Assembly: GCA_039028975.1 (NCBI GenBank)
Contig: JBCCHB010000104.1
Location: 1 to 60,392, forward strand
Origin: Chloroflexota bacterium
GTDB taxonomy: Bacteria > Chloroflexota > Anaerolineae > Caldilineales > Caldilineaceae
Reading direction: 5' to 3'
DNA length: 60,392 bases
Shown here: positions 3-22,514 of the stretch, piece after piece
How positions within the stretch are numbered: the first letter of the stretch is position 1
Layout of the letters: each line of letters begins with the position of its first letter
Made by a program: the position numbers and the translations under genes
The notes under the pieces: generated by a model
Told to the model about the DNA's origin: nothing
Database searches by the model: none
The model's input: only the letters and a program-made list of their open reading frames with translations

Positions 3-2570
3 ATTAAAGCTGTTGAGAACAAGTCTATTGGGCTGATTCGGGATGAAATCGGATACGACCTAGAACGAAACGGTGGCAGTGCCGTTGAGCGGTGGGGCAA
101 AGGCCACATCCCACCAGAAACCGAGGACATTGAGTCCCTTGCCAGGATTTTCATAAAGAGGGGAAAACTGCCGGAATCCTGGATCAGGAAATTTCTGGAA
201 TATGCAGGCTACCCGAATATCAACGACCTTTGTGCCAATTTGTTCCACGATTCAGATGCTGTTCCTGGTGACATCTACTCCGCAGCAACAAACGGGAATC
301 CAACCGCGCAACCGATACCGGATTCGGTCAACGAACAGTGGCAAACGAAGGTAAATGCCCGTTTGGAACCACAAGGGTACTCGCAGCTTTTTGGCATAGA
401 TGAGTATATTCTACAACTCAACCAGCATCTATTGGAGTTAGACGATATCTGGCTTATTGCTATTCAGGGCATGGGCGGTTTGGGAAAGACCACACTCGCT
501 GACTATGTGGTGCGACAGCCGGAGATGAGCCAACGGTTTGAGGAAATTGCGTGGGTGACGATCAAGAAGCATGGCTATATCCTGGAGGAAGGGAGAGTTA
601 CAGGAGATGACGCCTTTGTGGACAGGGAAGGGATTGTCGAAATGCTCTGTACCCAACTGGGCATCGTACATCATCAGGCATTACCTCCACATCAAAAACA
701 AAACGCCTTGATCACGCATCTGAAACGCGTCCCCTGCCTCATAGTGCTGGATAATCTTGAAGAGCTTCCAGATATGGGGCGTTTTATTCCATTCTTGCAT
801 TCGCTGACCAACCCAAGCAAAATCCTCATCACCAGTCGGCATGCTCTTCCCCAGACATCAGGCATTGCACCTATGGGTATGAAACGCCTGCCCAAAGATC
901 ATGCAACAGCGTTCCTACGCCATTTGTTAGGCAATCATGGCTCTTCTGCTCTAGCTTCCGCGACGGATGCGCAGTTAGGCCAGATGTATGATCGGGTAGG
1001 CGGTCATCCTCTGGCCTTGCGGATGGTTGCCAGCCAGGTGCGTATTTTGTCGCTGCCTGTGGTGCTACAAAATCTGAGCGCAGTGCCTGATGATGAAACG
1101 GATACATTGTACCATTTTCTATATCACAGGTCGTGGGAACTCCTTTCGCCCGATTCGCAGCAGCTACTAGCACTCATGCCGCTAGTGGATAATGGTTCAA
1201 GCGAGCAACTAGCTGCTATCGCTGAACTTAGAATTTCAGAATTGAACACAGCGTTACGTCAGCTAGTCCGCATGTCGCTCATAGAGGTGCGCGGAGGTCT
1301 GGAGGAGAAACGGTATTTTATTTACCGTCTGACCGAAACCTTTCTGCGTAAACAAACCCTTGCATGGAAAGCCCAGCCACATCGTTTTACAGAGTTCCAA
1401 TTCAGGCGTGGCACAGAGCGGAACCTGGATTACTGGCAAGCATGGCTTGAGCAACACAGCCATGAAGTGGACAGGCTGCACCGTGATCAAGCAGGTGTTG
1501 TCAAAGCTATCTGGTATGGATTGGATGTTCCTGATGCATTGCCTTCTGCCTATGCTCTCATTGAGCAGTTTTCACCCTATATGGAGCATCGGGGACATTG
1601 GCAAAGCTGGGGAAACGTGCTTGATACAGCCATAGAAACCGCGCAAGGAACGAACGGTAACGCACAGTTGCCATCGCTTTCTATCTCACATGCGCGTCTG
1701 CTCAGGCATCAGAGCCGCTACCTGGAAGCCGTTTCAGAATATGTCCGTGCTATCCGTCTTTCCCGCCAAGCGAAAGACCGCTATGCCAAGGCAAGGGCAT
1801 GGTCGAATTTAGGTCATCTCTATATTGAACTGGATCGGTGGTGGCGCGCGGAAGTCTTATGTGTTCATTCATTACAGATATTTGAGGAAACGGATAGTGT
1901 TCATGGGCGCGCCCATACGCATAACCATCTTGGTATCCTGTATACCCGCCAATGCAGGTGGGATGTAGCATGGCATCATCTACAGCAGGCTTTGAGTCTG
2001 TGGCAGGAGATGGATGAACTGTATGGCATTGCCGTTGCTAATCTCAATCTGGGCAAACTGGCTAACGATATGCGTATGGAAGCAGTGGAGCCGCCATGCT
2101 CTGCACATGGATTTCTTGAACGGGCCATCGATTATGGCACACAAACGGCGGATGAGGTGGCAGTCGCCATTGCGCGTATGAATTTGGGGATTACCTATAA
2201 GCTGGATGGCGAGTTAGATGAGGCCGAGCGTATCTTTCACGACTCAGCAAAGATTTTTGAGGAATATGGGGATGCCCTTAGCCTTGCCTTAATTTCTGAC
2301 AATCTGGGAGTGATATATGGCGAACGGGGAAACCCAAAGCAGGCGATGCATTATTTGCAAAAAGCCCTTGACAAATGGCGCGCATTGCATAGCCGATACG
2401 GCGAAATACGCACCTTACTCTATTTGGCAGAGTGGGAACTCAAAATCTGGAGCAAAAAGAGCGGGCAAGACTGGCTAGAGAAAGCCGGAGATCTTCTGTC
2501 ACAGGGTAATACAGGAGAGAAATATCCATCGCTACAAAAGACTTTTGAACGACTGAGTAGCAGCCTATGA
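3..2570 (+). CDS. STAND NTPase: N-terminal XRE-like HTH, NB-ARC ATPase, C-terminal TPR repeats. The frame is open to nt 3, so the gene is 5'-truncated by the window.
   Basis: Walker A 'GMGGLGKTTLADYV'; kinase-2/Walker B 'CLIVLDNLEE'; GxP motif 'VGGHPLALRMV'. Multiple TPR-like 'NLG.IY....W..A' repeats in the C-terminal half. The upstream frame reads '...AVERWGKGHIPPETEDIESLARIF...' (HTH-like) with no stop back to nt 3. Confidence 0.85.
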   Translation: MKAVENKSIGLIRDEIGYDLERNGGSAVERWGKGHIPPETEDIESLARIFIKRGKLPESWIRKFLEYAGYPNINDLCANLFHDSDAVPGDIYSAATNGNPTAQPIPDSVNEQWQTKVNARLEPQGYSQLFGIDEYILQLNQHLLELDDIWLIAIQGMGGLGKTTLADYVVRQPEMSQRFEEIAWVTIKKHGYILEEGRVTGDDAFVDREGIVEMLCTQLGIVHHQALPPHQKQNALITHLKRVPCLIVLDNLEELPDMGRFIPFLHSLTNPSKILITSRHALPQTSGIAPMGMKRLPKDHATAFLRHLLGNHGSSALASATDAQLGQMYDRVGGHPLALRMVASQVRILSLPVVLQNLSAVPDDETDTLYHFLYHRSWELLSPDSQQLLALMPLVDNGSSEQLAAIAELRISELNTALRQLVRMSLIEVRGGLEEKRYFIYRLTETFLRKQTLAWKAQPHRFTEFQFRRGTERNLDYWQAWLEQHSHEVDRLHRDQAGVVKAIWYGLDVPDALPSAYALIEQFSPYMEHRGHWQSWGNVLDTAIETAQGTNGNAQLPSLSISHARLLRHQSRYLEAVSEYVRAIRLSRQAKDRYAKARAWSNLGHLYIELDRWWRAEVLCVHSLQIFEETDSVHGRAHTHNHLGILYTRQCRWDVAWHHLQQALSLWQEMDELYGIAVANLNLGKLANDMRMEAVEPPCSAHGFLERAIDYGTQTADEVAVAIARMNLGITYKLDGELDEAERIFHDSAKIFEEYGDALSLALISDNLGVIYGERGNPKQAMHYLQKALDKWRALHSRYGEIRTLLYLAEWELKIWSKKSGQDWLEKAGDLLSQGNTGEKYPSLQKTFERLSSSL

Positions 2571-3688: not shown

Positions 3689-4570
3689 TCACATTGGCCT
3701 GCTAACCACACCTATTGTGCTGAACACTTCTCTGAACCTTTCACTCTCTGTTCCAAGGTAAAAGAATACATTGCCATGCGTGGGGCTACGCTGCTGCTGG
3801 CCATTTTTATCGATGAAACGAATGCGATGGTGAGTAGTGCAGGAGATATAGGTACTTGCCAGCTTCATATACCATGTGGCTGCAACGGCAGGCCGGACCA
3901 GAATGACTGCCTGGGTGATGTTGCCTGCCTCATATTCCTGGATGGCCTTGCCTGTGAAAGCTGCGGCTAATCCTGCCCCGAAAGGCGGGTTGAGCCAAAG
4001 ATTTCCTTGCCAGGGTTGCTCCAACCCATTATCCTTGATGCCATACCACTGTTTGGCCCGTATCCATTGCTGGGCTACTTCATTAGAGGCAGGGTCAAGG
4101 GAGATACGCCCCATGACTTGTCTGGCCATCTCGATATATTCGGATGGTGTATACCATTCATCACTTACCGAGCTACATTTGGCCTCATGGGGTTTACGTT
4201 TTCTGGTTTCCAGCCATGCTATCTCCCGCTTGATTTTCTTCAGCTCCCGTCCATTGTCAATTAACCGTTGGAACAGTTCGATTTCAGCATCTTTCAGATA
4301 GCGGCTCTTACAGCCATTTGCAAAGGGTGTACGGCTCCGGAGTTTGCCATAACGTCCTTTTCCTTTGGCGGTCCCTCCTGGTTTTGAATATTCGATCCAA
4401 CAATCCTGTAATATGCCCTCTTGCTGGAGCTGTTCCTGTTTGCGTTTGAGTGAAGCAAGACTACGCTGAGGCATAACAACTTTCGGTGGGCAGGATTCGG
4501 GGGCAAAACAGCAATGAGGCTCTTTTCTACTCTCCTTTGTGTCACATGGCAAGCCGTCACCCGAATGCAA
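3689..4570 (-). CDS. Phage-type DNA N6-adenine methyltransferase (Dam_phage-like). Probable true start is Met at ~4474.
   Basis: 'DEWYTPSEYIEMARQVMGRISLDPASNE' then 'NLWLNPPFG', i.e. the W.TP ... LDPA ... NPPF arrangement of phage Dam methylases. Confidence 0.7.
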   Translation of the reverse strand: MHSGDGLPCDTKESRKEPHCCFAPESCPPKVVMPQRSLASLKRKQEQLQQEGILQDCWIEYSKPGGTAKGKGRYGKLRSRTPFANGCKSRYLKDAEIELFQRLIDNGRELKKIKREIAWLETRKRKPHEAKCSSVSDEWYTPSEYIEMARQVMGRISLDPASNEVAQQWIRAKQWYGIKDNGLEQPWQGNLWLNPPFGAGLAAAFTGKAIQEYEAGNITQAVILVRPAVAATWYMKLASTYISCTTHHRIRFIDKNGQQQRSPTHGNVFFYLGTESERFREVFSTIGVVSRPM

Positions 4571-5011: not shown

Positions 5012-5890
5012 ATGCCTTCTTCCCCTTCATGGAATCAATATAGCAAGGACTTCATCAACATCCTTGAAGGATTCCGGTATCAGCACGGTATCCGAGAAGT
5101 GTTTTCCGACTGGGTTGAGGTTGCAGCCTGTGCCATCCACCAGGAACCGTATCATTTGGGGCTGGTGATACGGGATGAAACCTTTGATATCGTTGAAGCG
5201 CAATATATGGAGGCAGTGAAGAAGTATAACAAGGAGGAATTGAATGCTTTCGCCAATCTACTTGCGATCACGAAAATGGCGCTTGGTGAGGGCTATGGTG
5301 ATTTTCTTGGGAGAACGTATATGCAGCTTGAAATCAGTAACGACCGCAGCGGTGAATTCTTTACACCTTATCCAGTGTCCCTGATGATGGCCAGAATGAC
5401 CCTGGCGGATGTAGCTGAACAACTTCAGAAGAAGTCTTTTATCACTGTATCCGAACCAGCTTCTGGTGCAGGTGGGATGCTGATCGCACTGGCAGAGGTA
5501 CTTCAGGAGAAGGGATACCAACCAAGTGAAGCCATGTTCTTTGAGGCAGTTGATGTAAGCAAACTCTGCGCCGATATGACCTACCTACAGACAGGAATTC
5601 TTGGACTGTCCGGCATGGTGAGGCATGGCAATACGCTGACGATGGAGTCATGGAGCCACCGCTTTACACCGATATGTCGTATTTTCCCATACCGTACCAA
5701 CAGATTCCTGGACAGCCTTTATACTGATCCGGCGGAAATACCCGAACCAGAACAACCACCTGTTGCCGCCAACGACAATGAATTAGAGCAAGAAACCAGC
5801 ACACCCACACCAGAGGCTACTGCTGAAGCCGAGGTACTTGATCGCCTCTCTGACCTCGATCAATCTTACGTCCAGGGAAGATTGTTCTAG
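5012..5890 (+). CDS. N6-DNA-methylase-like protein (HsdM/gamma-class AdoMet-binding core) lacking a recognisable NPPY/F/W catalytic loop. Degenerate or non-catalytic.
   Basis: 'GEFFTPYPVSLMMARM' then 'VSEPASGAGGMLIALAE' (FxTP ... EPAxGxGG). No NPP[YFW] follows, and there are no adjacent hsdS/hsdR. Confidence 0.5.
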   Translation: MPSSPSWNQYSKDFINILEGFRYQHGIREVFSDWVEVAACAIHQEPYHLGLVIRDETFDIVEAQYMEAVKKYNKEELNAFANLLAITKMALGEGYGDFLGRTYMQLEISNDRSGEFFTPYPVSLMMARMTLADVAEQLQKKSFITVSEPASGAGGMLIALAEVLQEKGYQPSEAMFFEAVDVSKLCADMTYLQTGILGLSGMVRHGNTLTMESWSHRFTPICRIFPYRTNRFLDSLYTDPAEIPEPEQPPVAANDNELEQETSTPTPEATAEAEVLDRLSDLDQSYVQGRLF

Positions 5891-6302: not shown

Positions 6303-6542
6303 ATGACTGAATCAACCACCAACAAACCCGTATTCACTTTCCGACTTGGTACCCTTTCCGCCACCATCTGGCAGAACCGGACGAAGAAAGGAAGCTATTA
6401 CCGTACAGAAATGGTTCGGAATTACAGAGATACGGAAGGTGTCTGGCAAACAAGTAGCAGCTTCGGCCATGAGGAGTTGCTGAATGTGGCCAAACTAGCC
6501 GAACGTGCTGAAGACTATATCGCCCGTCTTACGCAATCCTAA
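6303..6542 (+). CDS. Hypothetical 79-aa protein.
   Basis: ORF only. Sits directly upstream of the methyltransferase gene. Confidence 0.3.
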   Translation: MTESTTNKPVFTFRLGTLSATIWQNRTKKGSYYRTEMVRNYRDTEGVWQTSSSFGHEELLNVAKLAERAEDYIARLTQS

Positions 6543-6612
6543 CAAGGCACATTTTCACAGGGCTGCACCAAAACGCAGCCCTTACTATTACACTTACTTC
6601 ACGGAGTATCTC

Positions 6613-7269
6613 ATGTTTTCGATTCACAGCTTTCTGAACCAACTCATTCACGATAATTGCATCCAGGTGATGCAGACCATGCCAAGTCACAGCATCGACC
6701 TGATCGTCACCGATCCACCCTATCTGGTGAATTACCGCTCCCGCGATGGCCGCACCATTGCCGGGGACCAGGATGATGCATGGCTGCATCCAGCCTTTGC
6801 CGAGATGTATCGGGTACTTACTCCCAACAGCCTGTGTATTTCCTTCTATGGCTGGAACAAGGTAGACCGCTTCATGGATGCATGGCGCACTGCCGGATTC
6901 ATGCCCGTAGGTCACTTCACTTGGAGCAAGCCTTATGCCTCTAGTCAAGGCTTCACCCAGGCCAGACATGAAAATGCCTATCTACTCGCTAAGGGTAACC
7001 CCAGAAAACCTGCCCATCCACCCAGAGATGTTCTGCCCTGGCACTATACCGGAAACCGACTGCACCCGACGCAAAAGCCTGTCTCTGCACTCACACCGCT
7101 GATTGAGGCATACTCTACCGAGGGTGCCATCATTCTCGATCCCTTCGCTGGTTCCGGCACTACTGCCGTTGCTGCTAGACAGTTACACCGTGCCTTTATC
7201 GGTATAGAGATGGACCGCACCTATTTCGTTAAGGCCAAAGACAGGCTGGCAAAGCATTCCGCCTCGTAA
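6613..7269 (+). CDS. DNA methyltransferase (N4-cytosine/N6-adenine, PF01555-like). The ORF track begins at 6505; the first ATG is at 6613.
   Basis: 'IDLIVTDPPYLVNY' (DPPY motif IV) then 'ILDPFAGSGTTAVAA' (AdoMet motif I), the beta-class motif order. Confidence 0.85.
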   Translation: MFSIHSFLNQLIHDNCIQVMQTMPSHSIDLIVTDPPYLVNYRSRDGRTIAGDQDDAWLHPAFAEMYRVLTPNSLCISFYGWNKVDRFMDAWRTAGFMPVGHFTWSKPYASSQGFTQARHENAYLLAKGNPRKPAHPPRDVLPWHYTGNRLHPTQKPVSALTPLIEAYSTEGAIILDPFAGSGTTAVAARQLHRAFIGIEMDRTYFVKAKDRLAKHSAS

Positions 7270-7399
7270 ATCGTAGACTGGCCGCTTTGGTATAAGAGCG
7301 GCCTGTTGCATTGGGCATCTATTAAGCGTAACCATTTTACGTCACGGGAAGCCATATTGCCACTTGATTTGTACGCCTTTTTAGCATACAATTGGGTGT

Positions 7400-7699
7400 A
7401 TGGAAACAGAACATGCAACGCAGCCAACAAAGAATCAACGCATCGCTACCCGCGTGACCAGTGAGCATAAATTACTGTTTGAGCAAGCCGCTCTCCTGAA
7501 GGGGATATCCCTGACGGACTTTATGGTGAGTTCTGCCTATGATGCAGCGGTCAAAGTGCTCATGGATAGTCAGGCTGTGTTAGAGGTGGGGGCAAAAGAC
7601 AGCCATGCTTTGATTGAGCGCTTACTGCATCCCCGCCAGCCCTCTGAATTGCCTGAACTTCAGAAAGCGGCTGCACAGAATCCATGTATCAAGTCATAG
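7400..7699 (+). CDS. DUF1778 (TacA-like RHH) antitoxin with no intact GNAT toxin partner.
   Basis: 'RIATRVTSEHKLLFEQAALLKGISLTDFMVSSAYDAAVKVLMD' matches the DUF1778 family. The downstream ORF (7614-7814) is not GNAT-like. Confidence 0.65.
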   Translation: METEHATQPTKNQRIATRVTSEHKLLFEQAALLKGISLTDFMVSSAYDAAVKVLMDSQAVLEVGAKDSHALIERLLHPRQPSELPELQKAAAQNPCIKS

Positions 7700-7864
7700 T
7701 CGGTGGCGGCACAATCATTTTACACGCAGTTGCTCACACGGATGTATCCCTTTGATCAAGCAGCGATGTATTTCTATCAGAAGTATCGTTTTCTTTCCTT
7801 ACCAGTTATGTTGAATATACTGTTTATCGAGATGGCAACGATCTGGAACAAGTTTGCCGTCTGA

Positions 7865-8617
7865 ATGGATATGAGTCAATGCAAAAGTGATACGGACATA
7901 GTTATTTTTGTCTACGGTGCAATGTTATCATTACGTTCTCAATTACAGGCCAAGATTGTTTTAAAAGTCATTTCGGTCGTTTCATTTGTCATCGCATTTA
8001 TTTGGTTCGTTGTCGAACCAGGTTTCGAGCCGATCCTGGCATTTCTGGGAGGAACCGCAGCCCTAATATCCTCTTTTGTTGATTCTGGTCAACAAAGTAA
8101 CGACGATGAAACAAGCTCTAATTTGGTGAATCAAACGGTTCGGCATGACAAACAGTATGATTATTTGACATCATCGCTACACAAAAAACCAGTCGAAAGA
8201 CCCAAAATCAAGTATAGGCCCACTCAAGATAAGGTAGTGGAAGATAAGCTTTACGATGCATTCATATCGCTAAGAAACCTATCATTCATTATTCTAATAT
8301 TCTCTTTATTCATGGTATGCGTTTTGACAGCAATGATGATTGCCCGGCTAGATGGCATACCGCTGATTGGATTCATCTGGCTAGTGACCATATTTAGCAT
8401 CTTTATATTCATGATGAAGACTCTTTATCGACGAATATCTGTTACGGGTTATTATGGCAAGATAAAGCTTGTTGACACACGAGAAACCATAAAACATTCA
8501 CTACAAAAACGAACCTGGGGAAACGTATTCACTAACATTTATATGGAGGCAGTCATTTCCTTTTTGCTCAAAACTAAGAAAAGGGAAGCTGATAAGCTTA
8601 TGGGCTGGTTTGGATAG
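7865..8617 (+). CDS. Polytopic (about 4-TM) membrane protein of unknown function, translationally coupled to the downstream peptidase.
   Basis: Hydrophobic segments 'IVLKVISVVSFVIAFIWFVV', 'ILAFLGGTAALISSFV', 'LSFIILIFSLFMVCVLTAMMIA', 'IPLIGFIWLVTIFSIFIFMM'. AT-rich codon usage. Stop at 8615-8617, 37 nt before the next ATG. Confidence 0.6.
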   Translation: MDMSQCKSDTDIVIFVYGAMLSLRSQLQAKIVLKVISVVSFVIAFIWFVVEPGFEPILAFLGGTAALISSFVDSGQQSNDDETSSNLVNQTVRHDKQYDYLTSSLHKKPVERPKIKYRPTQDKVVEDKLYDAFISLRNLSFIILIFSLFMVCVLTAMMIARLDGIPLIGFIWLVTIFSIFIFMMKTLYRRISVTGYYGKIKLVDTRETIKHSLQKRTWGNVFTNIYMEAVISFLLKTKKREADKLMGWFG

Positions 8618-8654
8618 AGCCAGCAGTAGGCAGTTTGTTAGGGAGAATTGGATT

Positions 8655-10040
8655 ATGGACAGTTTCGGCAATCAAGAATTGTTATATTTTAATGGCATTA
8701 ATGGTTTTACTGGTGAATATGGATTACCACCCATGTCATACGAAGAATTTGGGGAATTTATACGAAATGAACGGCCACCTCAAAATTTGGGCGACCTTAA
8801 GTTGCGACGTCAGTTAATTGCCAAAGAGAACCTTTATACAAAGGAAGGGGTAGATCCTAAAAAATTATCAGAAGCAGGCTGGGGTATTATTTTTGCTCAT
8901 GACGGTGATCCAAAGATTAAGGAAGCCCTCACCCCCCTTCTTGACCTGCGTTCCCAACAGGCTGGACAATATTTCAAGATTTATGATGGGAACGATGGAT
9001 ACCGACCTAATGAAACAAAAACCAGATTTCTTGCTAGGCATGGAGGTGGCCCTGGCCCAGCAGATCCCGAAAAGGTTCCGTATTACCTGCTGATTGTCGG
9101 CACTCCAGAGGCTATACCCTATCAATTTCAATATTTATTGGATGTACAGTACGCTGTTGGCCGAATTAGTTTTGATACAGTACAAGAATATGAGAATTAT
9201 GCCAAGAGTGTAGTTGCTGCTGAAACAAATGGGATACGAGGTCCAGAACGTTGCTGTTTTTTTGGTACGTCCAACCAAGATGATCGAGCTACGAATTTCA
9301 GTGCAACTCACCTGGTTCAGCCTTTATACAAGGAATTTTCTGGAAATAATCCTACTTGGGAGTCTGAATCCTTCATAGGTACACGGGCTACCAAAACAAA
9401 GCTTAAAGAACTTCTTGGAGGAAAGCAGGCACCTGCCCTTTTGTTTACTGCTACTCACGGTATGGGATTCCCTAAAGAGCATTCTCTTCAGGCCAGCCAT
9501 CAAGGTGCTTTATTATGTCAAAATTGGCCAGGACCAAAAAAGTGGCAACAACCGATCCCACAAGATTTTTACTTTTCAGAAGATGATGTGATCAGTGATG
9601 CAAATATGCTTGGACTTATAATGTTTTGTTTTGCATGTTATTCGGCTGGTACCCCTCTCTATAATGATTTTGACCGAAATCAGAACGAGCCCATTGCGTC
9701 ATCTCCGTTTATTGCAGGTTTGCCAAAAAAAATTCTGGGGAATACAAGTGCTGCTTTAGCTTTTGTTGGTCACATAGAACGAGCTTGGTCATACTCATTT
9801 CTTTGGCCTGGTGTTGGCGAACACACTATTGTCTTTCAGGATGTATTGAAGCGCCTCATTGATGGTCATCCGATTGGATCGGCAATGGAGCCAATTAATC
9901 AACGTTATGCAGAACTTGCAACTGTCACAGATTATTTGAACTCCGAAGATATTGACGATAATATTGGCGTATGGACAGCAAAAAACGACTCGCGTAACTA
10001 TATTATCATCGGTGATCCTGCCGTGCGTGTATCTAGTTGA
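8655..10040 (+). CDS. Clan-CD (caspase/legumain/gingipain-like) cysteine peptidase homolog. The ORF track starts at a TTG at 8610; the ATG at 8655 has a GGGAGA RBS.
   Basis: Putative catalytic His in 'ALLFTATHGMGFP' and Cys in 'MFCFACYSAGTP', ~54 aa apart (HG ... AC.S.G, as in legumain 'DHG...EACESG'). N-terminal beta-strand-like 'YYLLIVGTPEAIP'. Confidence 0.55.
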   Translation: MDSFGNQELLYFNGINGFTGEYGLPPMSYEEFGEFIRNERPPQNLGDLKLRRQLIAKENLYTKEGVDPKKLSEAGWGIIFAHDGDPKIKEALTPLLDLRSQQAGQYFKIYDGNDGYRPNETKTRFLARHGGGPGPADPEKVPYYLLIVGTPEAIPYQFQYLLDVQYAVGRISFDTVQEYENYAKSVVAAETNGIRGPERCCFFGTSNQDDRATNFSATHLVQPLYKEFSGNNPTWESESFIGTRATKTKLKELLGGKQAPALLFTATHGMGFPKEHSLQASHQGALLCQNWPGPKKWQQPIPQDFYFSEDDVISDANMLGLIMFCFACYSAGTPLYNDFDRNQNEPIASSPFIAGLPKKILGNTSAALAFVGHIERAWSYSFLWPGVGEHTIVFQDVLKRLIDGHPIGSAMEPINQRYAELATVTDYLNSEDIDDNIGVWTAKNDSRNYIIIGDPAVRVSS

Positions 10041-10133
10041 GGTGTAACAGAGAATATGTCCACTTGCTCTGATTTGACACTGCAATCAACAGACCATGAC
10101 TGATATAAAGTAAAAATCTCACTCCTTACCAGT

Positions 10134-10664
10134 CTAATTTGGCGCAATCAGATCTGTTACATTGGCAATTGCGCAATTTATGGCATCGCTAGGCTTCAAA
10201 GTAGGATCATGGCAGACCAAATTAGTTAATTCCTCAAATAGAAGCCTGACACCAACCATGTCAATAGGAAGGTGATATGCAAAAATCTGGGAAGCCCCCG
10301 TTTTTTTACGAATATCATCAATTTCAGAGCGAAAATGTAAATCATCGCCACAAGAATTCAAGATGATGAATTGCCCTTTGAAATTATCATGTTGTTCGTT
10401 TAAATCCTTAAGTATGCCCTCATTCAAGCCAGAATTGTGCCCAGCAACGAATACAGTGTTAACTGATGCTTGAGCTAAAGCTTCGATATTTGGGTAAGTC
10501 TCTATTTTTTTTTCTTGTGCATATTTTTCGATTTGTATCCCTGCTTGTATTTGTCTATCATCCAATCTGCGCAAATCTATCCATACTGCCATATTCCATT
10601 TACCATCGGCTCCCATTAGAGGTTGTTCATTAATTAAGTTTCGAATCGTATCTGTGAGGACCAT
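10134..10664 (-). CDS. Minimal (176-aa) CHAT/caspase-like domain protein.
   Basis: 'TVFVAGHNSGLNEG' (His-Gly) and 'QFIILNSCGDD' (Cys), spaced as a caspase-fold dyad. AGGAGA RBS 8 nt upstream of the ATG. Contains an A10 tract (10504-10513). Confidence 0.5.
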   Translation of the reverse strand: MVLTDTIRNLINEQPLMGADGKWNMAVWIDLRRLDDRQIQAGIQIEKYAQEKKIETYPNIEALAQASVNTVFVAGHNSGLNEGILKDLNEQHDNFKGQFIILNSCGDDLHFRSEIDDIRKKTGASQIFAYHLPIDMVGVRLLFEELTNLVCHDPTLKPSDAINCAIANVTDLIAPN

Positions 10665-10696
10665 TTCTGATTCTTCTCCTAATTGTGTTCACTGAC

Positions 10697-12667
10697 TCAA
10701 ATCATAGTCATACTTTTATCTAACAACATCGATATATACGAAAGCCCAGTCTGTAGCGCACGTAGATTATCTTTCTGAATATCAGTTAAATCGTCCCTTC
10801 CTAAAGTAGAATTTATTGCCTCATGGAGTAAGGGTGAAAAACCTTTACTGATTGCTTCGTCTGACTTAGCAAGCTCAATAAATTCATCAAGCACAATTTC
10901 TAGGGTCTCCAGCATCACCATCCCATCATATGCGAAAACGCCGCGGACTCCAGTGCTAGTAATGAACGAACTATCGAAGCGGCGTTGTTCATCATGATCC
11001 ACTGCTAGTATTGCTACATAACATTCCTGAAGGTGTTCAACACTAGTCGCTATAGGCAAGGATGATCTAGAATTTGTATCGAAGGGGGGGATAAAGTCAC
11101 TTTGTTGATTTGCTGAAATATAAAGAGCATTGGAACATCCATCCTCATCGAATTTATTTTGTGTAACAATCCCATTATTATCAGCTAGAGACTTTAGCTG
11201 CGCCAGGCGTTCTGAACTTGCAGGGCCGAATGAATCTTCATCAATTATCAGCGTCAGATTCCAGTTCCCATTGTTGTCCAATACAGGACGTTGGCCCTCA
11301 AGATTAGCTAGTGCAATTATTGGATCATCATCTAGTGAAACATTTTTGACGCCTCGAGTTTTCGCAATCATAGCTAATCCATGCGCGATTCCACGTCGAA
11401 GTTCTCGCTCTGCCTTGTTCGATGTTAGCCCGGTAACGAAAACTAGATTTTCTTGTTTCTCGGAGAATAGAAATTCAAAAACATCTGTAAAGTCAGGAAA
11501 CTCATATTGTAATTCCAGGTTGTAAAGATGTTGTAGACAATAATCTCCGACCGCACATTTTATTTCGACATTTAGATCTGTTAGAGATATACCCTCAAAA
11601 ACCCTAAATTCTCGCCCACGTTGTACTAACAAATACCCATTTAACTCATCGACATAAATAGCGGGGTACCCCTTCATTGTCATGGCCGCAACGCCCAGTC
11701 GATTTCGCAGCCAGTAATCAATTGAAAACGATTTTCCCATAAATGCCCACATGCCATTTGCATTTGTCTTACCTATAGCATCAAGGAAGTTTAGTATTTG
11801 TTGAGCGCCTATATTATCATCGTTAGCGAAGAACGTCCGTCCAAATTCCGATACTGCATCAAATTCTACGTCAATAATTTCACCTTTTTTTGTATGCCAG
11901 AGCGTGAGTTTATCGCCCCACTCTGTTGTACCAGGTGTAACGTCAGTACCATTTTCCCATAATGCGTGGAAAAATTTTTCCTCTGAGCCAACTTCATAAT
12001 TTAATGCACGATTGTTGTAGCCAAATATGTCTAGGTCTGACAGATAGAGTTCTGGTAATGATTTTCTTTGTGTTGGTGTTAGGCTCAGAAGATTTAGAAG
12101 AAGAAATGTTTCTATTTCGTTCCCAGAAAGTTCTTGATAATTTGCTTGACCTCCCCCCCGTAGCTCAAGCAAATTATCAAGAGCTTCCAGGTCTCCAGAA
12201 CTTATACGGGGCCTAAGTAGCTCATACGCATGAGCTATATCTTCATCTACCCAAAAAGGTTGTGGGTAAGCGCTATTAGGTGAGAAAAAATCGTATTCAC
12301 TAATATCGTATTCGCTAATATACATGTCAACTAGCACTACTCTTTTGGTCGTATCATATCTTACACTGTTATCTAGTTGTGATTGTAAAAGTTGTTCCAA
12401 AGCCCTTGAGGTTCCAGTTCTTGCACTAAGGTTGACTAACTCTGGAGATAATCCATTAACCGTAAAAGAGCGACCACCATAGGTAATCATATTACCTGCT
12501 ACCGACCCTCCAACCACCCTAGTACCGGAAGATATTGTCCGTAAAATTTGTCGAATCAGGGAAGCTTGTTGGGTAGGCGATGCGTAAGCAGGTGCAAAAA
12601 AAATTACTGTCAAAATTAAGGTGATGCTAATTATTGTAATTCGTAGGAAATATCTCAACATTATCAC
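10697..12667 (-). CDS. Large secreted protein (656 aa) of unknown function with an N-terminal signal peptide. Operonic with the 176-aa CHAT-like gene.
   Basis: 'MIMLRYFLRITIISITLILTVIFFAPAYASPTQQ' (signal peptide, A-Y-A|S cleavage-like). 32-nt gap to the downstream gene. In-frame 15-bp tandem duplication (ISEYDISEYD) at 12291-12320. Confidence 0.6.
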   Translation of the reverse strand: MIMLRYFLRITIISITLILTVIFFAPAYASPTQQASLIRQILRTISSGTRVVGGSVAGNMITYGGRSFTVNGLSPELVNLSARTGTSRALEQLLQSQLDNSVRYDTTKRVVLVDMYISEYDISEYDFFSPNSAYPQPFWVDEDIAHAYELLRPRISSGDLEALDNLLELRGGGQANYQELSGNEIETFLLLNLLSLTPTQRKSLPELYLSDLDIFGYNNRALNYEVGSEEKFFHALWENGTDVTPGTTEWGDKLTLWHTKKGEIIDVEFDAVSEFGRTFFANDDNIGAQQILNFLDAIGKTNANGMWAFMGKSFSIDYWLRNRLGVAAMTMKGYPAIYVDELNGYLLVQRGREFRVFEGISLTDLNVEIKCAVGDYCLQHLYNLELQYEFPDFTDVFEFLFSEKQENLVFVTGLTSNKAERELRRGIAHGLAMIAKTRGVKNVSLDDDPIIALANLEGQRPVLDNNGNWNLTLIIDEDSFGPASSERLAQLKSLADNNGIVTQNKFDEDGCSNALYISANQQSDFIPPFDTNSRSSLPIATSVEHLQECYVAILAVDHDEQRRFDSSFITSTGVRGVFAYDGMVMLETLEIVLDEFIELAKSDEAISKGFSPLLHEAINSTLGRDDLTDIQKDNLRALQTGLSYISMLLDKSMTMI

Positions 12668-13629
12668 TTCCTTATTATTTTACTGAGGAAAATAAAATTA
12701 ATAAATCAAACTGCGTCTCATCGAACGATTGTTAAACAATCCCCTATGTGTGTTGGGTTACTCTTCCTAATTGATTTTATCATATGAAACCTTCCGGGTA
12801 ATTCTGTAAGTTGTTGGTCGCGCACAATGATTGAGGAAGACAATACAAGGTGTGCTGAGAGTGTTCCTAGTGGCTGATAACACCCATATGACAGATAGTC
12901 GTATGAAGACATTTACACTGAAACTAATCAGAAGATTGTTATTGTACGAGTGCTTAGATTTGGGCAAGCATTTGTCGGTTGCTTTCTAACCCCAGGTCCT
13001 GGACGTTTTATTTTAATTCCACAACAATGATCATTTGTTCCTCAGCGTTTACCGTTTTTGCGATGTTGAATCGCTCAATATGGTATTTCAGTTGGTAATT
13101 GCTTCATTTTTGCAAACTATTTGTACCAAAAGTAACCCTTCAGCCACCCTAAAATTAAATCGATATAAAGTCTAATAAGAATCAGTAGATCGCAATCCAA
13201 CCTCTTCACGAGGTGGCGGAGTCGAGATTCTTCGCTAGGCATGTACCGAATAGCTTGGTAACCCAAGCCATAACACGGTTTTGTCTCACGGAAATAGTGG
13301 TGGCTCAGAATGATATTGCGATCTACTAAGTATAGTATCTATAGACGTAAAAGCCTGTCTATTTCTTTCACAAAGGACTTCCTGTCGTAACAGGCTCAAC
13401 TGGCACGTAGTAAATACTGAAGTGCGTTTCGTGAGAATGCTATCGATAGGACCAGCGGGCTTAGATGGACAGAAGCCTACACTTTTAGATTTGTTTTGAG
13501 GGTTGAAAGCGTAGGTTCTTGTTCGAATCGGCTTAGGAGTCCTTCGTCGGTGAAGTATGTGCCATTGGGTAGCACATGCTTGTATGGGAGTAGCGAGATG
13601 TGTGACAGGTTTTCATCGTCGGTGGTTTC

Positions 13630-13896
13630 TCACCGCTGCCGCAAGTTTTCAACGATGCTGTCTATTTTGATGGTGTTCCAGTAGAGTACGGCGTTGGAAA
13701 CAAGGCTGAGACAACTGGCCTTGTTCATGATTTCTTCGTAATTTCCGGTCGTGAACTCTACCTGGTCTGCAAAGAAAATCCGCTGTGGTAATTTATGACG
13801 ATACTCTCCTTTGTTGAGCTGTAGCTGGACGGTTCGACGTAAATCCGGATCGGTGAGATAGCGCAGAATATATTCTGTTTTGATGATACGCCCCAA
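13630..13896 (-). pseudogene. Tn3-family transposase (TnpA) C-terminal fragment. Remnant only.
   Basis: 'GEYRHKLPQRIFFADQVEFTTGNYEEIMNKASCLSLVSNAVLYWNTIKI' matches the conserved C-terminal region of Tn3 TnpA. No upstream continuation of the frame. Confidence 0.75.
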
Positions 13897-14003: not shown

Positions 14004-14237
14004 TTAGATGTCTTCCTTTTCGGAGGCTATCCTCAGTGATTTATCAAGCGTGGCTACCTGAAATTGACGCCGCAAAGCCAATTCTAGGTAACAGGCATCG
14101 TAGGTTGTCAGACGGTAGGTAGTCATCACGGGGACCATACGCTCGATCTCCGGGGGGGTGGCCGCCTCCGTGTCAATAGTCAAGGTCAAACATCCGATTG
14201 GCTTCAAAGGCTCCGATTTCCTGCACCGTGCTCCCAT
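14004..14237 (-). pseudogene. PIN-domain (VapC-like) toxin C-terminal fragment.
   Basis: 'TYDACYLELALRRQFQVATLDKSLRIA' resembles a VapC C-terminus. The N-terminal half is missing or frameshifted. Confidence 0.5.
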
Positions 14238-14478: not shown

Positions 14479-14730
14479 TTGTATTGTTTCACTATGCGGT
14501 ATGACACCGAAAAATGGCAGGCCAAACGGTGGGAAACGGAGCGCCGTTACTACGTGGCCGAACTGCGTCAGGATCTGTTTGGTGGCTGGTGTATTGAACG
14601 GCATTGGGGAGCACGTTACAGTCGGCAGGGAAATAGTCTGACCATCTCTGCAAACGACTACGTTCATGCGCTTGAGCTGCTTGAGGAGGTTGCCAAACGG
14701 AGACAGCTTCGGGGGTACGCCCATGCCTGA
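14479..14730 (+). CDS. WGR-domain protein.
   Basis: 'RRYYVAELRQDLFGGWCIERHWGARYSRQGNSL' matches the WGR-domain pattern (RyY.....DLFG.w.v...WGRiG..Gq). Confidence 0.6.
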   Translation: MYCFTMRYDTEKWQAKRWETERRYYVAELRQDLFGGWCIERHWGARYSRQGNSLTISANDYVHALELLEEVAKRRQLRGYAHA

Positions 14731-15301
14731 TGTCCTCCATGACCAGGAAGGCCACCGCAAATACCTCAATAAGGCCGAGCGGGAAGCTTTCTTAAAAGCA
14801 GCACTCGATGAAGAACGGGAACGGCGCACTTTCTGCGAGATGTTACATTACAGCGGTGCGCGGATTTCTGAAGTGCTGGCGATCACCGCAGGCCGCATCG
14901 ATCTCGACACGCATAGCGTCACGCTGGAAAGCCTCAAAAAGCGGCAGCGGGGTATTTTCCGCATTGTTCCCCTGCCTTCTTCTTTCGTCGAACGGCTCGA
15001 TTTGGTACATGGGATTAAACAGGCACAGAAAAAGGGTAAAGAGGAGGTGTGGCTTTGGACATGCAGCCGTACCACCGCATGGCGTATTGCCAAGGGTGTG
15101 ATGCAGCGGGCCGGAGTGATAAGCAGCGCCGCCACACCCAAAGGACTACGGCACGGTTTCGGTGTCGCAGGCGTTACCCATGAAGTGCCGCTCAATATGG
15201 TGCAGAAATGGCTCGGACATACCGACATCGCCACCACCGCCATCTACGCCAATGCCATTGGTGAAGAAGAACGGCAAATTGCACAGAGAATGTGGGAGTG
15301 A
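14666..15301 (+). CDS. Small tyrosine recombinase/integrase (catalytic domain only). Likely start is Met at ~14723.
   Basis: Catalytic-residue context 'ARISEVLAI' (Arg), 'HGLRHGFGV' (His-x-x-Arg), 'IATTAIYANA' (Tyr nucleophile). Confidence 0.75.
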   Translation: MRLSCLRRLPNGDSFGGTPMPDVLHDQEGHRKYLNKAEREAFLKAALDEERERRTFCEMLHYSGARISEVLAITAGRIDLDTHSVTLESLKKRQRGIFRIVPLPSSFVERLDLVHGIKQAQKKGKEEVWLWTCSRTTAWRIAKGVMQRAGVISSAATPKGLRHGFGVAGVTHEVPLNMVQKWLGHTDIATTAIYANAIGEEERQIAQRMWE

Positions 15302-15874: not shown

Positions 15875-16636
15875 ATGTATACACAGCATCCAGTGTTCAT
15901 GCCCCCTGAAAACGATAGCGCTCGGATTTGGCGATATTTAGATTTCACAAAACTAGTGTCACTATTTGAATCACAATCGCTCTTCTTCGCTCGTACAGAC
16001 AAACTCGGTGATCCCTTTGAGGGATCTTGGCCACAAAAAAACTTGCGCGTGGTAAGAGATAACCTTCCCGATATTCCTGTTGACAAGCATGAAATCTATT
16101 TTATGGACGTGGCCAACATTAGCAATCTCTTGAAAAAGTGGGCAGAGTGCAATGCGATCAGTTGTTGGCATCTAAATGAGCAAGAATCCGCGGCAATGTG
16201 GAGACTATATCTTAAGAGTGATGAGGGAATTGCAATTCAATCGACATTTGCACGTCTTCGTGATTCGATAACCGATGACAGAACCGTTTACATTGGAACA
16301 GTCCGCTACATTGATTATGAGACAGATTGGTTTGATCCAATTAACCTTTACGAGGCTCTGCTACACAAAAGAAAAAGCTTTGAACATGAGAGAGAATTGA
16401 GGGCTGTTGTCACAGCAATATCAACCGGTCCAGAGGAAAGAGAAATCGACTTTAGCAAGTCAGAAATTACTGATGGAATCAAGATCGCTGTGAATGTTAA
16501 TATGCTGATTGAAAATATTTACGTAGCTCCTGATGCGCCAACATGGTTTACGGATCTCGTGAGTTCTATTGTCAACAGGTACAAATACAAGTTCAATGTC
16601 CAACAATCGAAGTTGTCTGAGAGACCAATCTACTAA
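15875..16636 (+). CDS. DUF2971-family protein (abortive-infection-associated family).
   Basis: 'IWRYLDFTKLVSLFESQSLFFARTDKLGDPFEG' matches the DUF2971 N-terminal signature (YrY.s...l..l....l.fs....fNDPfE). Confidence 0.55.
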   Translation: MYTQHPVFMPPENDSARIWRYLDFTKLVSLFESQSLFFARTDKLGDPFEGSWPQKNLRVVRDNLPDIPVDKHEIYFMDVANISNLLKKWAECNAISCWHLNEQESAAMWRLYLKSDEGIAIQSTFARLRDSITDDRTVYIGTVRYIDYETDWFDPINLYEALLHKRKSFEHERELRAVVTAISTGPEEREIDFSKSEITDGIKIAVNVNMLIENIYVAPDAPTWFTDLVSSIVNRYKYKFNVQQSKLSERPIY

Positions 16637-16737: not shown

Positions 16738-18351
16738 CTAACCTAATACAAACCTAATATCGCTGGGATTTACATTTTCAGATGATATTAGTCTAACTTG
16801 CTCTGAGCCACCAAGGTTCTCCATTAATAACTCCGCTTGGGCAAGAATGTATGCTTCGTTCATATTCCGTCCTGAAGCAATAGACTCGTAAAAAGCAGAA
16901 GCAAAGGCAATGGCAGACACATTTTCTATCTCACCCTCAATACCAATAACACAGTCAACATGACACGATATCTGCGTTGCTTGAGTATGTGAGTAACAAG
17001 AATTTAGTACTACACAACGGATATCGCCCTTAAATCCTCTAAAAATTTCGCTGAGTGTATGAGGCTCTACCCGATGATAAGTTCCTGTGTTATTTTCAAA
17101 GAGTAATGCCCCATTCTTTACGCCATGTCCACTAAAGTGAACTATAGTGGGTCTATAGTAAAGTAAATACCGTAAGACGTCTCTCGCTTTAGTCGCCCAT
17201 ATTTGCTGAATCGTAAATTGTTGTCCATAAATAGCCCGATTCAATGATTCAAAAATTTCTCTATGCTCTTTTCCGAGCTGAAGCCAAACCCTATCAGAGG
17301 GTTCGGCAGCTAAACAAAGTATTACATTTTTTTCAATATGATTGTCGTTTGATTTAGGCTGAAACTGTTGTTCTATAGTGATCGAATAAGACTCTAATTC
17401 AGGATGTTTATTCCCCAATTCATACACGAGTTGATGTGCGTCCTTCTCCGAAAGTTCTAACGTAACACGCACACTACCGGAGCTAATATTTTGCAAGAAA
17501 ACTCTCTCTGAATCTATGTCGGCAGCAGCACAAATAGCTGCGATTAAATCATCGAGATGTTTAGGTGTATAGGTAGCTATATCATTTGGGATGGATATGG
17601 TAATCTGACCACGTGATCGGTCTTTGCGTAAACGGTCGATAGCATCTTGCAAGAATTCAACATCAGCCGAGTTTTCCCGCTTGCTAAACATGTCTTGGGT
17701 ATTGTGACGACTGTTGTTAGTATCCACCTCATTAGTCAGAAGAGTATACCCAAGTTCTTGCCGTTCTCTGGTACCTATCGGGTCCCAACCCCACTCCTCT
17801 TCTAATATAGTCCATACCTCTTCAAAAAACTCAGGATTCTGGCTTAATCGCAGAGTATCCAAGAGATACATTATAAAGGAAAAGCGACGCGTGGCGCGAG
17901 GTTTGGCTATACCTTGCTCCCATGCTGCAACTGTTTTTCGAGCCTGTCGGCCGGTTAGACCTAACATTTTTGCTGCTTCAGCTTGTGATAGCCCAACCCC
18001 TTCGCGTAGCTGACACAGAATTTGAAGACGAGACGTAGTGGAACGTTGATTGCGATCTCTTGAGGAAAAATCTTCATTAAGTGCTTTTAGAGTTGGGTTC
18101 CCTGGATTATAGTCATGTGCACTTTGGATCAATTCATAAACTCGATCTGTCGCAACAGACCATTCGATGAGGCTAGATACGATTGATGCCAGATTGCTAC
18201 CAGATGCAATCCTATCCAGGGATACGTTCATCTCTACTTGAACCATCATGCGCAAAGCATCTTTGGTTCGGTAGCCATCCAGGAGCGCTTCCTTAATCTG
18301 TTTTATTTGAGAACCGTCCGGCTTCATATGGCTCTCTGTCTTACCTTCCAC
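16738..18351 (-). CDS. Effector-associated-domain (EAD-like) + HTH + C-terminal CHAT/caspase-like domain protein.
   Basis: N-terminus 'IKQIKEALLDGYRTKDALRMMVQVEMNVSLDRIASGSNLASIVSSLIEWS...NPGNPTL' is EAD-like. Central 'LSQAEAAKMLGLTGRQARKTVAAWEQG' is an HTH. C-terminal 'TIVHFSGHGVKNGALLF' (His) and 'IRCVVLNSCYSH' (Cys) form a caspase-fold dyad. Confidence 0.6.
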   Translation of the reverse strand: MEGKTESHMKPDGSQIKQIKEALLDGYRTKDALRMMVQVEMNVSLDRIASGSNLASIVSSLIEWSVATDRVYELIQSAHDYNPGNPTLKALNEDFSSRDRNQRSTTSRLQILCQLREGVGLSQAEAAKMLGLTGRQARKTVAAWEQGIAKPRATRRFSFIMYLLDTLRLSQNPEFFEEVWTILEEEWGWDPIGTRERQELGYTLLTNEVDTNNSRHNTQDMFSKRENSADVEFLQDAIDRLRKDRSRGQITISIPNDIATYTPKHLDDLIAAICAAADIDSERVFLQNISSGSVRVTLELSEKDAHQLVYELGNKHPELESYSITIEQQFQPKSNDNHIEKNVILCLAAEPSDRVWLQLGKEHREIFESLNRAIYGQQFTIQQIWATKARDVLRYLLYYRPTIVHFSGHGVKNGALLFENNTGTYHRVEPHTLSEIFRGFKGDIRCVVLNSCYSHTQATQISCHVDCVIGIEGEIENVSAIAFASAFYESIASGRNMNEAYILAQAELLMENLGGSEQVRLISSENVNPSDIRFVLG

Positions 18352-18696: not shown

Positions 18697-19080
18697 TTAT
18701 CGGATCGTTTTTACTTGACACAGACTCAGGGTCTCCCAAGATCTATCGGCAGTGACGGCGATAAACTTGCGGCTGCAAGCGACGGCAAGGCAAGCACGAT
18801 CGCCAAAGGATAAACCAGCCTGTTTCGTCATTGGGCGCAATCGTCCTGCTTCCCAGGATAACTGACGATCAAAATCAACGATATTTCCGATACCGATCAC
18901 AGAAATTATCGTCGTCACATCCGCTTCGCTCACGCCTTTCTCCAAGAGTTTTGCAATGACTTCGGAAAGGTTGACTGAGCATATGACAGATGCAGGTATC
19001 AGTGGGGTGACTGCATCACTTCCTGTCTCATCATTGAGTAGCGCAAGCACTGCGGATGCATCCAGAATAAAATCAATCAT
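18697..19080 (-). CDS. vapC: VapC PIN-domain toxin.
   Basis: 'MIDFILDASAVLALLNDE' (PIN N-terminal Asp) and 'LSFGDRACLAVA'. 8-nt overlap with the upstream antitoxin. Confidence 0.8.
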   Translation of the reverse strand: MIDFILDASAVLALLNDETGSDAVTPLIPASVICSVNLSEVIAKLLEKGVSEADVTTIISVIGIGNIVDFDRQLSWEAGRLRPMTKQAGLSFGDRACLAVACSRKFIAVTADRSWETLSLCQVKTIR

Positions 19081-19969: not shown

Positions 19970-20623
19970 TTATCTGTCTCTCAGCACTATCGGTAGTACT
20001 CCATCCTTATAGTAGGCTTCTGCTATCCCAAGGTATCTACGAAGCCCATAGGGAAAGGTAGCCACGGCTTCAAAGGGAATATTTCCTTCTGTCACCCGTT
20101 TAACGCCTGTTGGCCTCTTGCCACGTTTGCTAAGAGGGCCATCCACTGGTACGCGTTTCGTGGTGCTTCTTCCGGCCTCTATTCCCTCGAACCCTAACAG
20201 GGGAGCTAAACGGTTGACTTCTGTGATCCATTGCGGATCGTTATGGGAGGTGGTTCCGGTCATACCACCAAGATGGTAATGTACCGAAGCATGAATACAT
20301 TCATGCAGCAACACATCAAAGGCAAAAGACTGGCCAAGCCATTCGGATGGCACGCCCCAAGGCTCTTTGGCTGCTGTGCCGCCAAAGACGGAAGGATGCA
20401 TGATCATGGTTGGTGGATGCCTGTCACTGGCAGCGCACTGCCCCAGGCATCTCCCATGTGCGGTCAGAGAGAGAATCAGGTGCGGATATGGTAAAGCACC
20501 CTCAAACCACGCTGCATTGATGGCGTCAAAGGCTGCATAGAGCCACCTGCCCTGCTCTCCATAGAATGTCTCTGCCACCAGATGGCAAGCCTCTCTCACT
20601 GCAACTTCGTTCCTGTAACACAT
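19970..20623 (-). CDS. SprT-like zinc metalloprotease-domain protein.
   Basis: HExxH in 'VLLHECIHASVHYH'. N-terminal 'FDAINAAWFEGALPYPHLILSLTAHGRCLGQC' is a SprT-like pattern. Confidence 0.6.
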   Translation of the reverse strand: MCYRNEVAVREACHLVAETFYGEQGRWLYAAFDAINAAWFEGALPYPHLILSLTAHGRCLGQCAASDRHPPTMIMHPSVFGGTAAKEPWGVPSEWLGQSFAFDVLLHECIHASVHYHLGGMTGTTSHNDPQWITEVNRLAPLLGFEGIEAGRSTTKRVPVDGPLSKRGKRPTGVKRVTEGNIPFEAVATFPYGLRRYLGIAEAYYKDGVLPIVLRDR

Positions 20624-22484: not shown

Positions 22485-22514
22485 ACCAAATTCTAATGCC
22501 AACATAAAAATTGC

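Follow-up and report, generated by a model that had tools for sequence, protein, structure and literature searches.

The window analysed here, a stretch of 60,392 nucleotides (nt) of contig JBCCHB010000104.1 (assembly GCA_039028975.1), stems from a metagenome-assembled genome of a Chloroflexota bacterium. On its forward strand, two neighbouring open reading frames (ORFs) in an AT-rich island encode a membrane protein of 250 amino acids (aa) and a cysteine peptidase of 461 aa (Table 1), and an earlier note, made from the sequence without database searches, had interpreted them as a system of a protease and a membrane effector. The result for this locus is mainly a correction: the protease call was right and is already annotated at NCBI, whereas the pairing appears to be unique to this locus and should, on this evidence, not be listed among defence systems.

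The two genes and their products

Both ORFs, the gap between them and the GGGAGA element ahead of the second were read in the sequence as previously described. The membrane ORF ends with a TAG at 8615–8617, and from this stop to the ATG of the peptidase at 8655 there are exactly 37 nt, which include the Shine-Dalgarno-like element. NCBI places the start of the membrane ORF at Met3, giving a protein of 248 aa. For the peptidase, an alternative TTG at 8610 would overlap the membrane ORF; since the homologues begin 5–12 residues ahead of a conserved 'LLxFNG', the ATG at 8655 is taken as the true start. Translational coupling of the two genes, which had been proposed, was not borne out, as genes of one operon are ordinarily spaced like this, with a 37-nt gap that includes a separate ribosome-binding site, and stop and start do not overlap. 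The two genes are probably co-transcribed; promoter and terminator scans of 7300–10800 stayed at the level of shuffled controls and were uninformative for or against an operon.

A protein identical to the 461-aa product is present in the database under the NCBI name 'C25 family cysteine peptidase'. It matches Pfam PF01364 (Peptidase_C25) with 31.1 bits (E 1.9e-7; gathering cut-off 23 bits), with residues 165–459 aligning to profile positions 124–374, and a precomputed match to the same profile is found on most of its homologues. An AlphaFold2 model was built from 25 sequences (pLDDT 80.5, pTM 0.87), and its best Foldseek matches were the gingipains RgpB (1cvr, E 2.8e-10) and Kgp (6i9a, E 2.2e-9), with RgpB and Kgp structures overall reaching E values up to 2e-8; separase, the proteases of Craspase and SAVED-CHAT, and caspase-7 ranked next. 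The Foldseek match to RgpB (1cvr) had TM-scores of 0.51/0.54 over 428 columns, at an identity to gingipains of just 12–13%. When the PDB was searched by sequence, using either a profile or just the catalytic half, no meaningful match came up, so that among the PDB searches the link to gingipains comes from the fold search only.

The motifs TATHGMG and FACYSAG, pointed out earlier as a catalytic pair, are both present, and His268, Gly269, Ala327 and Cys328 are invariant in the alignment of 25 sequences. The distance from His268 to Cys328 is 60 residues and not about 54 as had been given; in gingipains, this spacing is shorter. In the model, both residues of the dyad follow predicted beta-strands, as expected for clan CD. 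Asp210, which is likewise invariant and lies after the first core strand, might by conjecture be the S1 acid. By Pfam threshold, predicted fold and dyad, the protein is assigned to clan CD, as a peptidase of the gingipain (C25) type. This agrees with the clan-CD assignment made from the sequence, and the profile and structure searches that had been suggested for checking it point to a C25 fold and not to a non-peptidase one.

With the gingipains RgpB and Kgp (MEROPS C25, clan CD; 1cvr, 6i9a and 4rbm), the window enzyme shares the fold over about 430 columns at a TM-score of about 0.5, and also the His-Gly and Ala-Cys dyad after consecutive beta-strands. In contrast to them, it has neither a hydrophobic segment nor a signal peptide by hydropathy, no Ig-like domain, type-IX C-terminal domain or other Pfam domain was found on it, and its family is located in STAND/CHAT operons. 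Because a hydrophobic N-terminal segment is missing, the peptidase is taken as cytoplasmic, unlike gingipains, and biologically it does not count as one of them, as it is devoid of secretion features.

For the membrane protein, four hydrophobic helices had been claimed. Four long helices are indeed present in its AlphaFold2 model (residues 8–50, 54–80, 119–159 and 165–194, followed by three short C-terminal helices), whereas hydropathy gave only three strong hydrophobic segments and a weaker one (about residues 55–72). Four transmembrane (TM) helices arranged as two hairpins are a reasonable prediction from this model, which is all-helical and in line with the earlier view of a polytopic partner that does not resemble gasdermin. 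Foldseek gave no match of the model to the PDB below E = 1, Pfam gave just sub-threshold matches to DUF2244 (in the N-terminal part, module A) and DUF92, and PHROGs gave a weak match of unknown function to module A.

A word-indexed search found a single relative of the membrane protein (P0122), which is N-terminally truncated, has transposases on both sides and no peptidase nearby. At this site (L001, 7900–8459), the similarity runs upstream of the called start and then breaks, with IS91 and rve transposase genes as flanks; it is a decayed copy. An exhaustive HMMER search gave 72 matches, including the full-length relatives P0123–P0126 (45–30% identity, E 3e-49 to 3e-20), and because of these four full-length relatives the membrane ORF is considered a real gene of a very rare family. 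Most of the 72 matches cover module A only. A Pfam census of them counted NACHT domains in 17, TIR domains in two and EAD7, a type of effector-associated domain (EAD), in five (best E 1.5e-17).

Module A, the first TM hairpin, is found N-terminally in NACHT NTPases that have multi-TM tails, in a TIR–beta-propeller protein and in a TIR–NACHT–FGE-sulfatase protein, with 38–54% identity to these hairpins. Module B, the second hairpin with its predicted three-helix tail, is fused behind EAD7-type adaptor domains in P0158, P0177 and P0182, and in P0129 it follows a cysteine/histidine-rich N-terminal region without a Pfam match; its tail is conserved (..LYRRI..TGFY...S...RE.VK.SL..R.WGN...). Module-sharing proteins comprise P0132, P0143, P0145, P0148, P0151 and P0156 besides the three EAD7 fusions. 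EAD7 has been described as one adaptor that recruits effectors to conflict systems (Kaur et al. 2020, PMC7159879), and for this reason module B is plausibly an effector module. From these sequence comparisons, the membrane protein is a fusion (mosaic) of two predicted TM-hairpin modules that are found elsewhere in conflict proteins. It shares module A with the N-terminal TM modules of NACHT and TIR proteins and module B with the EAD7-linked modules (Kaur et al. 2020), but contains no NTPase, TIR or EAD, only the two membrane modules and a linker. By Pfam, no EAD (PMC7159879) was found on either of the two window proteins.

The linker between the modules is modelled as disordered and is charged, with 11 K+R and 11 D+E in residues 73–138, and the C-terminal tail contains 13 K+R. 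As both are K/R-rich, they are predicted to be cytoplasmic by the positive-inside rule, and we infer from the model that the linker is a candidate protease-accessible site.

The peptidase family and the occurrence of the pair

A protein search with the peptidase gave at least 4,168 significant matches, with identities of about 55% across phyla. The best 120 listed are 54–61% identical over 98–100% of the query, apart from P0008 (38%), a protein of 806 aa with two tandem C25-like catalytic domains, the second of which is interrupted by the contig end. In GTDB contigs (one genome per species), 525 of 598 pattern matches encode relatives of the peptidase, and these are found in Chloroflexota, Acidobacteriota, filamentous cyanobacteria (Nostoc, Calothrix, Fischerella, Tolypothrix), Desulfobacterota and others. 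The window peptidase and its best relatives have an invariant N-terminal FNG...G...PP motif and the dyad in common.

For the analysis of gene neighbourhoods, 79 loci (L002–L080) were fetched, and their ORFs were called and clustered. A same-strand gene of the STAND/CHAT/WD40 cluster was present within three genes of 53 of the 74 catalytic genes. Pfam identified the members of this cluster as CHAT+SIR2_2 proteins (~690 aa), nSTAND1+WD40 proteins (~1,200–1,650 aa) and CHAT-nSTAND1-WD40 fusions. The usual operon consists of CHAT-SIR2, nSTAND1(-WD40), the C25-like peptidase with a C-terminal extension, a ~260-aa protein (found in 20 loci) and a ~110-aa protein that is homologous to the peptidase's own extension (for example L036, 596–9793; L091, 3403–10853; L069, 8514–21414). 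Most peptidase homologues are 550–700 aa long because of the extension, which measures at least 40 aa in 65 of the 74 and 100–200 aa in the operon-type homologues; eight are complete short forms.

Variants of this arrangement exist. In the cyanobacterial one, a ~450-aa protein, found mainly in cyanobacteria and without a Pfam match, precedes the C25-like gene, which is followed by CHAT-nSTAND1-WD40. Other variant genes encode patatin, membrane-anchored N-acetylmuramidases, glycoside hydrolases with SH3 domains and papain-like peptidases. As muramidase and patatin genes adjoin some of the homologues, the C25-like family is at times accompanied by envelope-directed effectors. The usual home of the family is thus a conflict (cell-suicide or anti-invader) operon, with two clan-CD proteases in one STAND system. 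Judged from the gene order, the C25-like enzyme would in its usual context act downstream of the nSTAND1 NTPase sensor, beside CHAT-SIR2 and lytic effectors. PADLOC has no model for the peptidase or for the ~260-aa and ~110-aa proteins. Literature queries for C25 or gingipain-like peptidases gave only Porphyromonas, type-IX or sediment-peptidase papers, none in a STAND, CHAT or defence context, and two papers of the Aravind laboratory that treat such systems are silent on C25 and gingipain.

The catalytic core of the window peptidase is orthologous to this nSTAND1-associated family, as its identity to the best 120 matches listed indicates, and its closest homologues (P0004 and P0002, 59–61% identity) lie in a canonical operon, as does P0024. 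It is nevertheless the most divergent of the set and an atypical member. The protein ends three residues past 'GDPAVR' without a C-terminal extension, and no same-strand nSTAND1/WD40 or CHAT(-SIR2) gene is located within a few genes of it. The nearest STAND gene (NB-ARC-TPR) is 5.3 kb off, and an EAD1-HTH-CHAT gene lies 6.7 kb off on the opposite strand. The usual ~260-aa and ~110-aa downstream genes are absent, and the genes downstream are convergent.

No relative of the membrane ORF was found in the 79 peptidase loci, either by tblastn or with profile hidden Markov models of the full membrane family and of module A run over the 4,735 ORFs (70 aa or longer) that they contain. Conversely, no C25 peptidase was found in 11 loci with relatives of the membrane ORF (10 distinct contexts, as L086–L088 carry the same protein), which include all four full-length relatives, one truncated copy and module-B fusions. 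The neighbours of these relatives are unrelated genes and comprise a HigB toxin, XisI, ABC-transporter genes and chorismate mutase. A scan of JGI metagenomes with the membrane family gave no further copies. In the loci sampled, the pairing of the membrane protein and the peptidase is confined to this locus, and no conserved two-gene system is supported. For the proposed protease and membrane-effector system, the earlier note had itself named missing synteny in related genomes as evidence to the contrary, and the pair is indeed non-syntenic (0/79 peptidase loci, 0/11 membrane-family loci).

Explanations for the pairing

The most probable explanation, to which a probability of roughly 0.6 is given, is a juxtaposition specific to this locus, in which a plasmid-like mobile element carries the two genes and these form no dedicated conserved system. 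The peptidase would be an intact, cytoplasmic, divergent short-form C25 endopeptidase from the STAND/CHAT conflict-operon family, which at this locus would have lost its STAND/CHAT neighbours and its C-terminal extension. The adjacency would result from a one-off gene shuffling of two conflict-system parts of different origins inside the AT-rich island. Once activated, the peptidase would cleave cytoplasmic substrates via His268 and Cys328, and the membrane protein would act at the inner membrane as an effector-type (or anchor-type) module. If the two proteins cooperate, their contact would be the K/R-rich linker (residues about 75–118), and a cut there would separate modules A and B.

Several points weigh against such a juxtaposition. 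The genes share the strand and the composition of the island, a good Shine-Dalgarno element lies in the short gap between them, and they may well be co-expressed. Conflict systems evolve by just such recombination, and non-conservation is no proof of non-function. In addition, the 79 peptidase loci were sampled out of thousands, and the loci with relatives of the membrane protein number only 11, most of them on contigs of just 1–3 kb.

Among the alternatives, the one that survives best, but is unlikely, is that the peptidase gene was left behind when an nSTAND1 operon broke up and is now under relaxed constraint, inert or being lost, with the membrane ORF as an unrelated solo gene. The window peptidase is a long-branch outlier, with a mean identity of 56% to 24 homologues that share 62–70% mutually. 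Fourteen of 128 positions that are invariant in these other 24 sequences are changed, including Ser267Thr beside the catalytic His, Gly330Ser beside the catalytic Cys and two small deletions. A remnant would also be in keeping with the gene relics in the surroundings (a Tn3 fragment, a possible PIN fragment and a TacA gene without a detectable toxin) and with the truncated, transposase-flanked state of the first relative found for the membrane ORF. However, the peptidase ORF is of full length and covers 98–100% of the catalytic core, and 114 of the 128 positions, with the whole dyad, are kept. AT-biased composition can account for part of the divergence, and probably does contribute to it. Short forms are also not restricted to broken loci, as half of the eight other complete ones are located inside STAND operons (for example L044, L007 and L032). 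On sequence grounds, the divergence would fit either a changed role or relaxed constraint.

Almost equally unlikely is a new minimal two-gene abortive-infection module, in which the peptidase, once activated, would cleave the membrane protein, most plausibly in the linker, and release a membrane-disrupting form. It would be favoured by the arrangement on one strand of a shared AT-rich island with a 37-nt gap and a separate Shine-Dalgarno element, and by a linker predicted to be disordered, K/R-rich and cytoplasmic, beside a peptidase without a signal peptide. Both membrane modules occur in immune-type proteins (NACHT 17, EAD7 5 and TIR 2 of the 72 matches), and some peptidase homologues directly follow membrane-anchored muramidases or precede patatin phospholipases. 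Against it, no second instance was found in the 79 and 11 loci, the metagenome scan added no copy of the membrane family, the adaptor extension is absent, and the pair has no sensor or switch, whereas members of the family normally rely on a STAND NTPase.

A precedent for such a module is the two-gene system of membrane EACC1 and caspase, likewise with a 5' membrane-protein gene and a 3' gene for a peptidase of the caspase superfamily (PMC7159879). EACC1 has a single conserved TM helix and is proposed to act as a sensor that then activates the protease; it is paired with a caspase/CHAT-type domain to which variable effector domains are attached C-terminally, and the pair is conserved in 671 organisms (PMC7159879). 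The window protein, in contrast, has four predicted helices in two unrelated modules and only sub-threshold Pfam matches (with the presence of an EACC1 model in the Pfam copy used being unconfirmed), its peptidase is a C25-type domain with nothing attached, and the pair is unique. With modules of gasdermin and protease, with Craspase and with SAVED-CHAT, the analogy would lie in a protease that unleashes an effector by cleavage, and CHAT structures are distant fold matches of the window peptidase (7y85, E 3e-4; 8tl0, E 2.6e-3). Unlike in gasdermin modules, the membrane partner is modelled as all-helical and polytopic and there is no conserved synteny, and unlike in Craspase and SAVED-CHAT, there is no nucleotide or CRISPR sensor at the locus. 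The likeness to the EACC1-caspase and gasdermin-protease pairs is one of logic only, as a single-TM EACC1 protein and a co-occurrence of protease and effector across genomes, which define those pairs, were looked for and are not present here. Somewhat more doubtful still is a sensor-less two-gene suicide module in which the gingipain-fold protease would cut the linker and free an EAD7-type membrane effector module, helical and different from gasdermin.

Finally, a secreted nutritional or virulence protease of the gingipain type, exported or anchored with the help of the membrane protein, is very improbable: secreted gingipains are the best structural matches, but the enzyme has no signal peptide or hydrophobic segment and no detected Ig-like or type-IX C-terminal domain, the neighbours of its family are cytoplasmic STAND, CHAT and SIR2 proteins, and its host, a member of the Chloroflexota, is outside the Bacteroidota, to which type IX secretion is restricted (PMC5445135).

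With the juxtaposition as the preferred reading, the locus itself is of moderate interest, and the context of the C25 family and the shared TM-hairpin modules are more interesting. Although the C25 peptidases known so far are almost all secreted virulence factors, peptidases of this fold also make up a very large and strongly conserved cytoplasmic family, whose genes lie within nSTAND1-WD40/CHAT-SIR2 operons in filamentous or multicellular bacteria. As a broader corollary of the doubtful sensor-less module above, the whole C25-like family would act as a second clan-CD protease beside CHAT in STAND ('apoptosome-like') systems, amounting to a protease cascade. The occurrence of the same TM-hairpin modules in NACHT/TIR, EAD7-linked and stand-alone membrane proteins suggests that they are reusable membrane-effector or anchor parts. 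Either by-product could guide experiments on the way in which STAND systems of bacteria bring about cell death.

The AT-rich island and its surroundings

The AT-rich island is real and contains four genes. GC content is 0.39–0.43 over about 8,000–13,000, compared to 0.477 for the whole window. At third codon positions (GC3), it is 0.40 for the membrane ORF, 0.31 for the peptidase and 0.33 and 0.31 for the two convergent ORFs, whereas the adjacent methylase, TacA and integrase genes have values of 0.50–0.61. The AT-rich composition noticed earlier was thus confirmed, and the horizontal acquisition proposed on its basis fits these GC3 values and the remains of Tn3 and integrase genes close by. 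The edges of the island were not definable by direct or inverted repeats, as only short, chance-like matches were found.

Table 1. Positions of the features described in the window (strand: +, forward; -, reverse)
Feature	Position	Strand	Details
NB-ARC-TPR STAND NTPase	240–2570	+	Outside the island
AT-rich island	7865–13500	.	Membrane ORF, peptidase and two convergent ORFs; by GC and GC3
Membrane-protein ORF	7865–8617	+	250 aa, helical; ORF call, hydropathy, full-length relatives, AlphaFold model
Module A, residues about 27–80	7943–8104	+	First predicted TM hairpin; motif W..VEPGFEP.LAFLGG.AAL..SF
Charged linker, predicted disordered, residues about 75–118	8087–8218	+	pLDDT < 50 over residues 75–114
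Module B, residues about 119–250	8219–8614	+	Second predicted TM hairpin and three-helix cytoplasmic tail; pLDDT 83–91
GGGAGA, Shine-Dalgarno-like	8641–8646	+	8 nt 5' of the peptidase ATG; direct sequence reading
C25-like cysteine peptidase ORF, short form	8655–10040	+	461 aa; Pfam PF01364, NCBI name, Foldseek RgpB
Putative catalytic His268-Gly269 codons (TATHGMG)	9456–9461	+	Preceded by predicted strand 262–266 in the model
Putative catalytic Cys328 codon (FACYSAG)	9636–9638	+	Preceded by predicted strand 322–326 in the model
Convergent ORF, 176 aa	10134–10664	-	In the AT-rich island
Convergent ORF, 656 aa	10697–12667	-	In the AT-rich island; N-terminal signal-like hydrophobic segment
Tn3-family transposase fragment	13630–13896	-	Profile positions 276–362 of 389; near the right island edge
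Possible PIN-domain fragment	14004–14237	-	Sub-threshold Pfam match, E 0.01; near the right island edge
Tyrosine integrase	14666–15301		Beyond the Tn3 and possible PIN relics
DUF2971 protein	15875–16636	+	Matches PADLOC defence candidate PDC-S31, E 2.6e-22
EAD1-HTH-CHAT protein	16738–18351	-	Second clan-CD protease of the window; GC3 0.35; adjoins the DUF2971 gene
PIN protein	18697–19080		After the EAD1-HTH-CHAT gene
Plasmid-like backbone	19970–24888		SprT-like, RepA-type initiator (PF10134, E 3.5e-82), Toprim/DnaG-like primase, ParA
Gene cluster	25280–31089	-	Sulfatase/alkaline-phosphatase-like, SNF2 helicase, TerB-domain protein, 122-aa ORF, protein matching major-vault-protein shoulder/repeat

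Scans of the four island proteins with PADLOC and NCBIfam gave zero matches. The 656-aa convergent protein matched solely itself among 5.8 billion proteins, and the 176-aa protein had no match in any of the profile libraries scanned. No relative of either convergent ORF was found in any of the 79 peptidase-homologue loci. A suspected paralogy between the 176-aa ORF and the C-terminal part of the 656-aa ORF was rejected (BLASTP E = 0.2).

To the left of the island, a gene for a TacA-type antitoxin (PF08681, E 5e-16) was identified within 7400–7864, without a recognisable TacT toxin downstream. A 53-aa ORF follows it (7703–7864), and the ATG of the membrane ORF starts directly after its stop. 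The idea that this ORF is a truncated TacT acetyltransferase was unsupported, as there was no Pfam match even at E = 10. Recombination at the left edge of the island may have had its junction in the region 7400–7864.

Further to the left, three DNA methyltransferase genes follow the NB-ARC-TPR gene (3689–4570 on the reverse strand, and 5012–5890 and 6505–7269 on the forward strand; Dam-like, N6_Mtase and N6_N4_Mtase). No obvious restriction endonuclease gene lies beside them, and they are orphan methylases of the kind found on mobile elements. On the right side, the relics near the island edge are followed by the integrase, the DUF2971 and EAD1-HTH-CHAT genes and the plasmid-like backbone. The surroundings of the island look like a mobile element or plasmid that is dense in conflict genes, and the 60-kb contig may be a plasmid or the carrier of an integrated element. 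The cluster beyond the backbone, which includes the SNF2 helicase and TerB-domain genes, may be another defence-type cluster.

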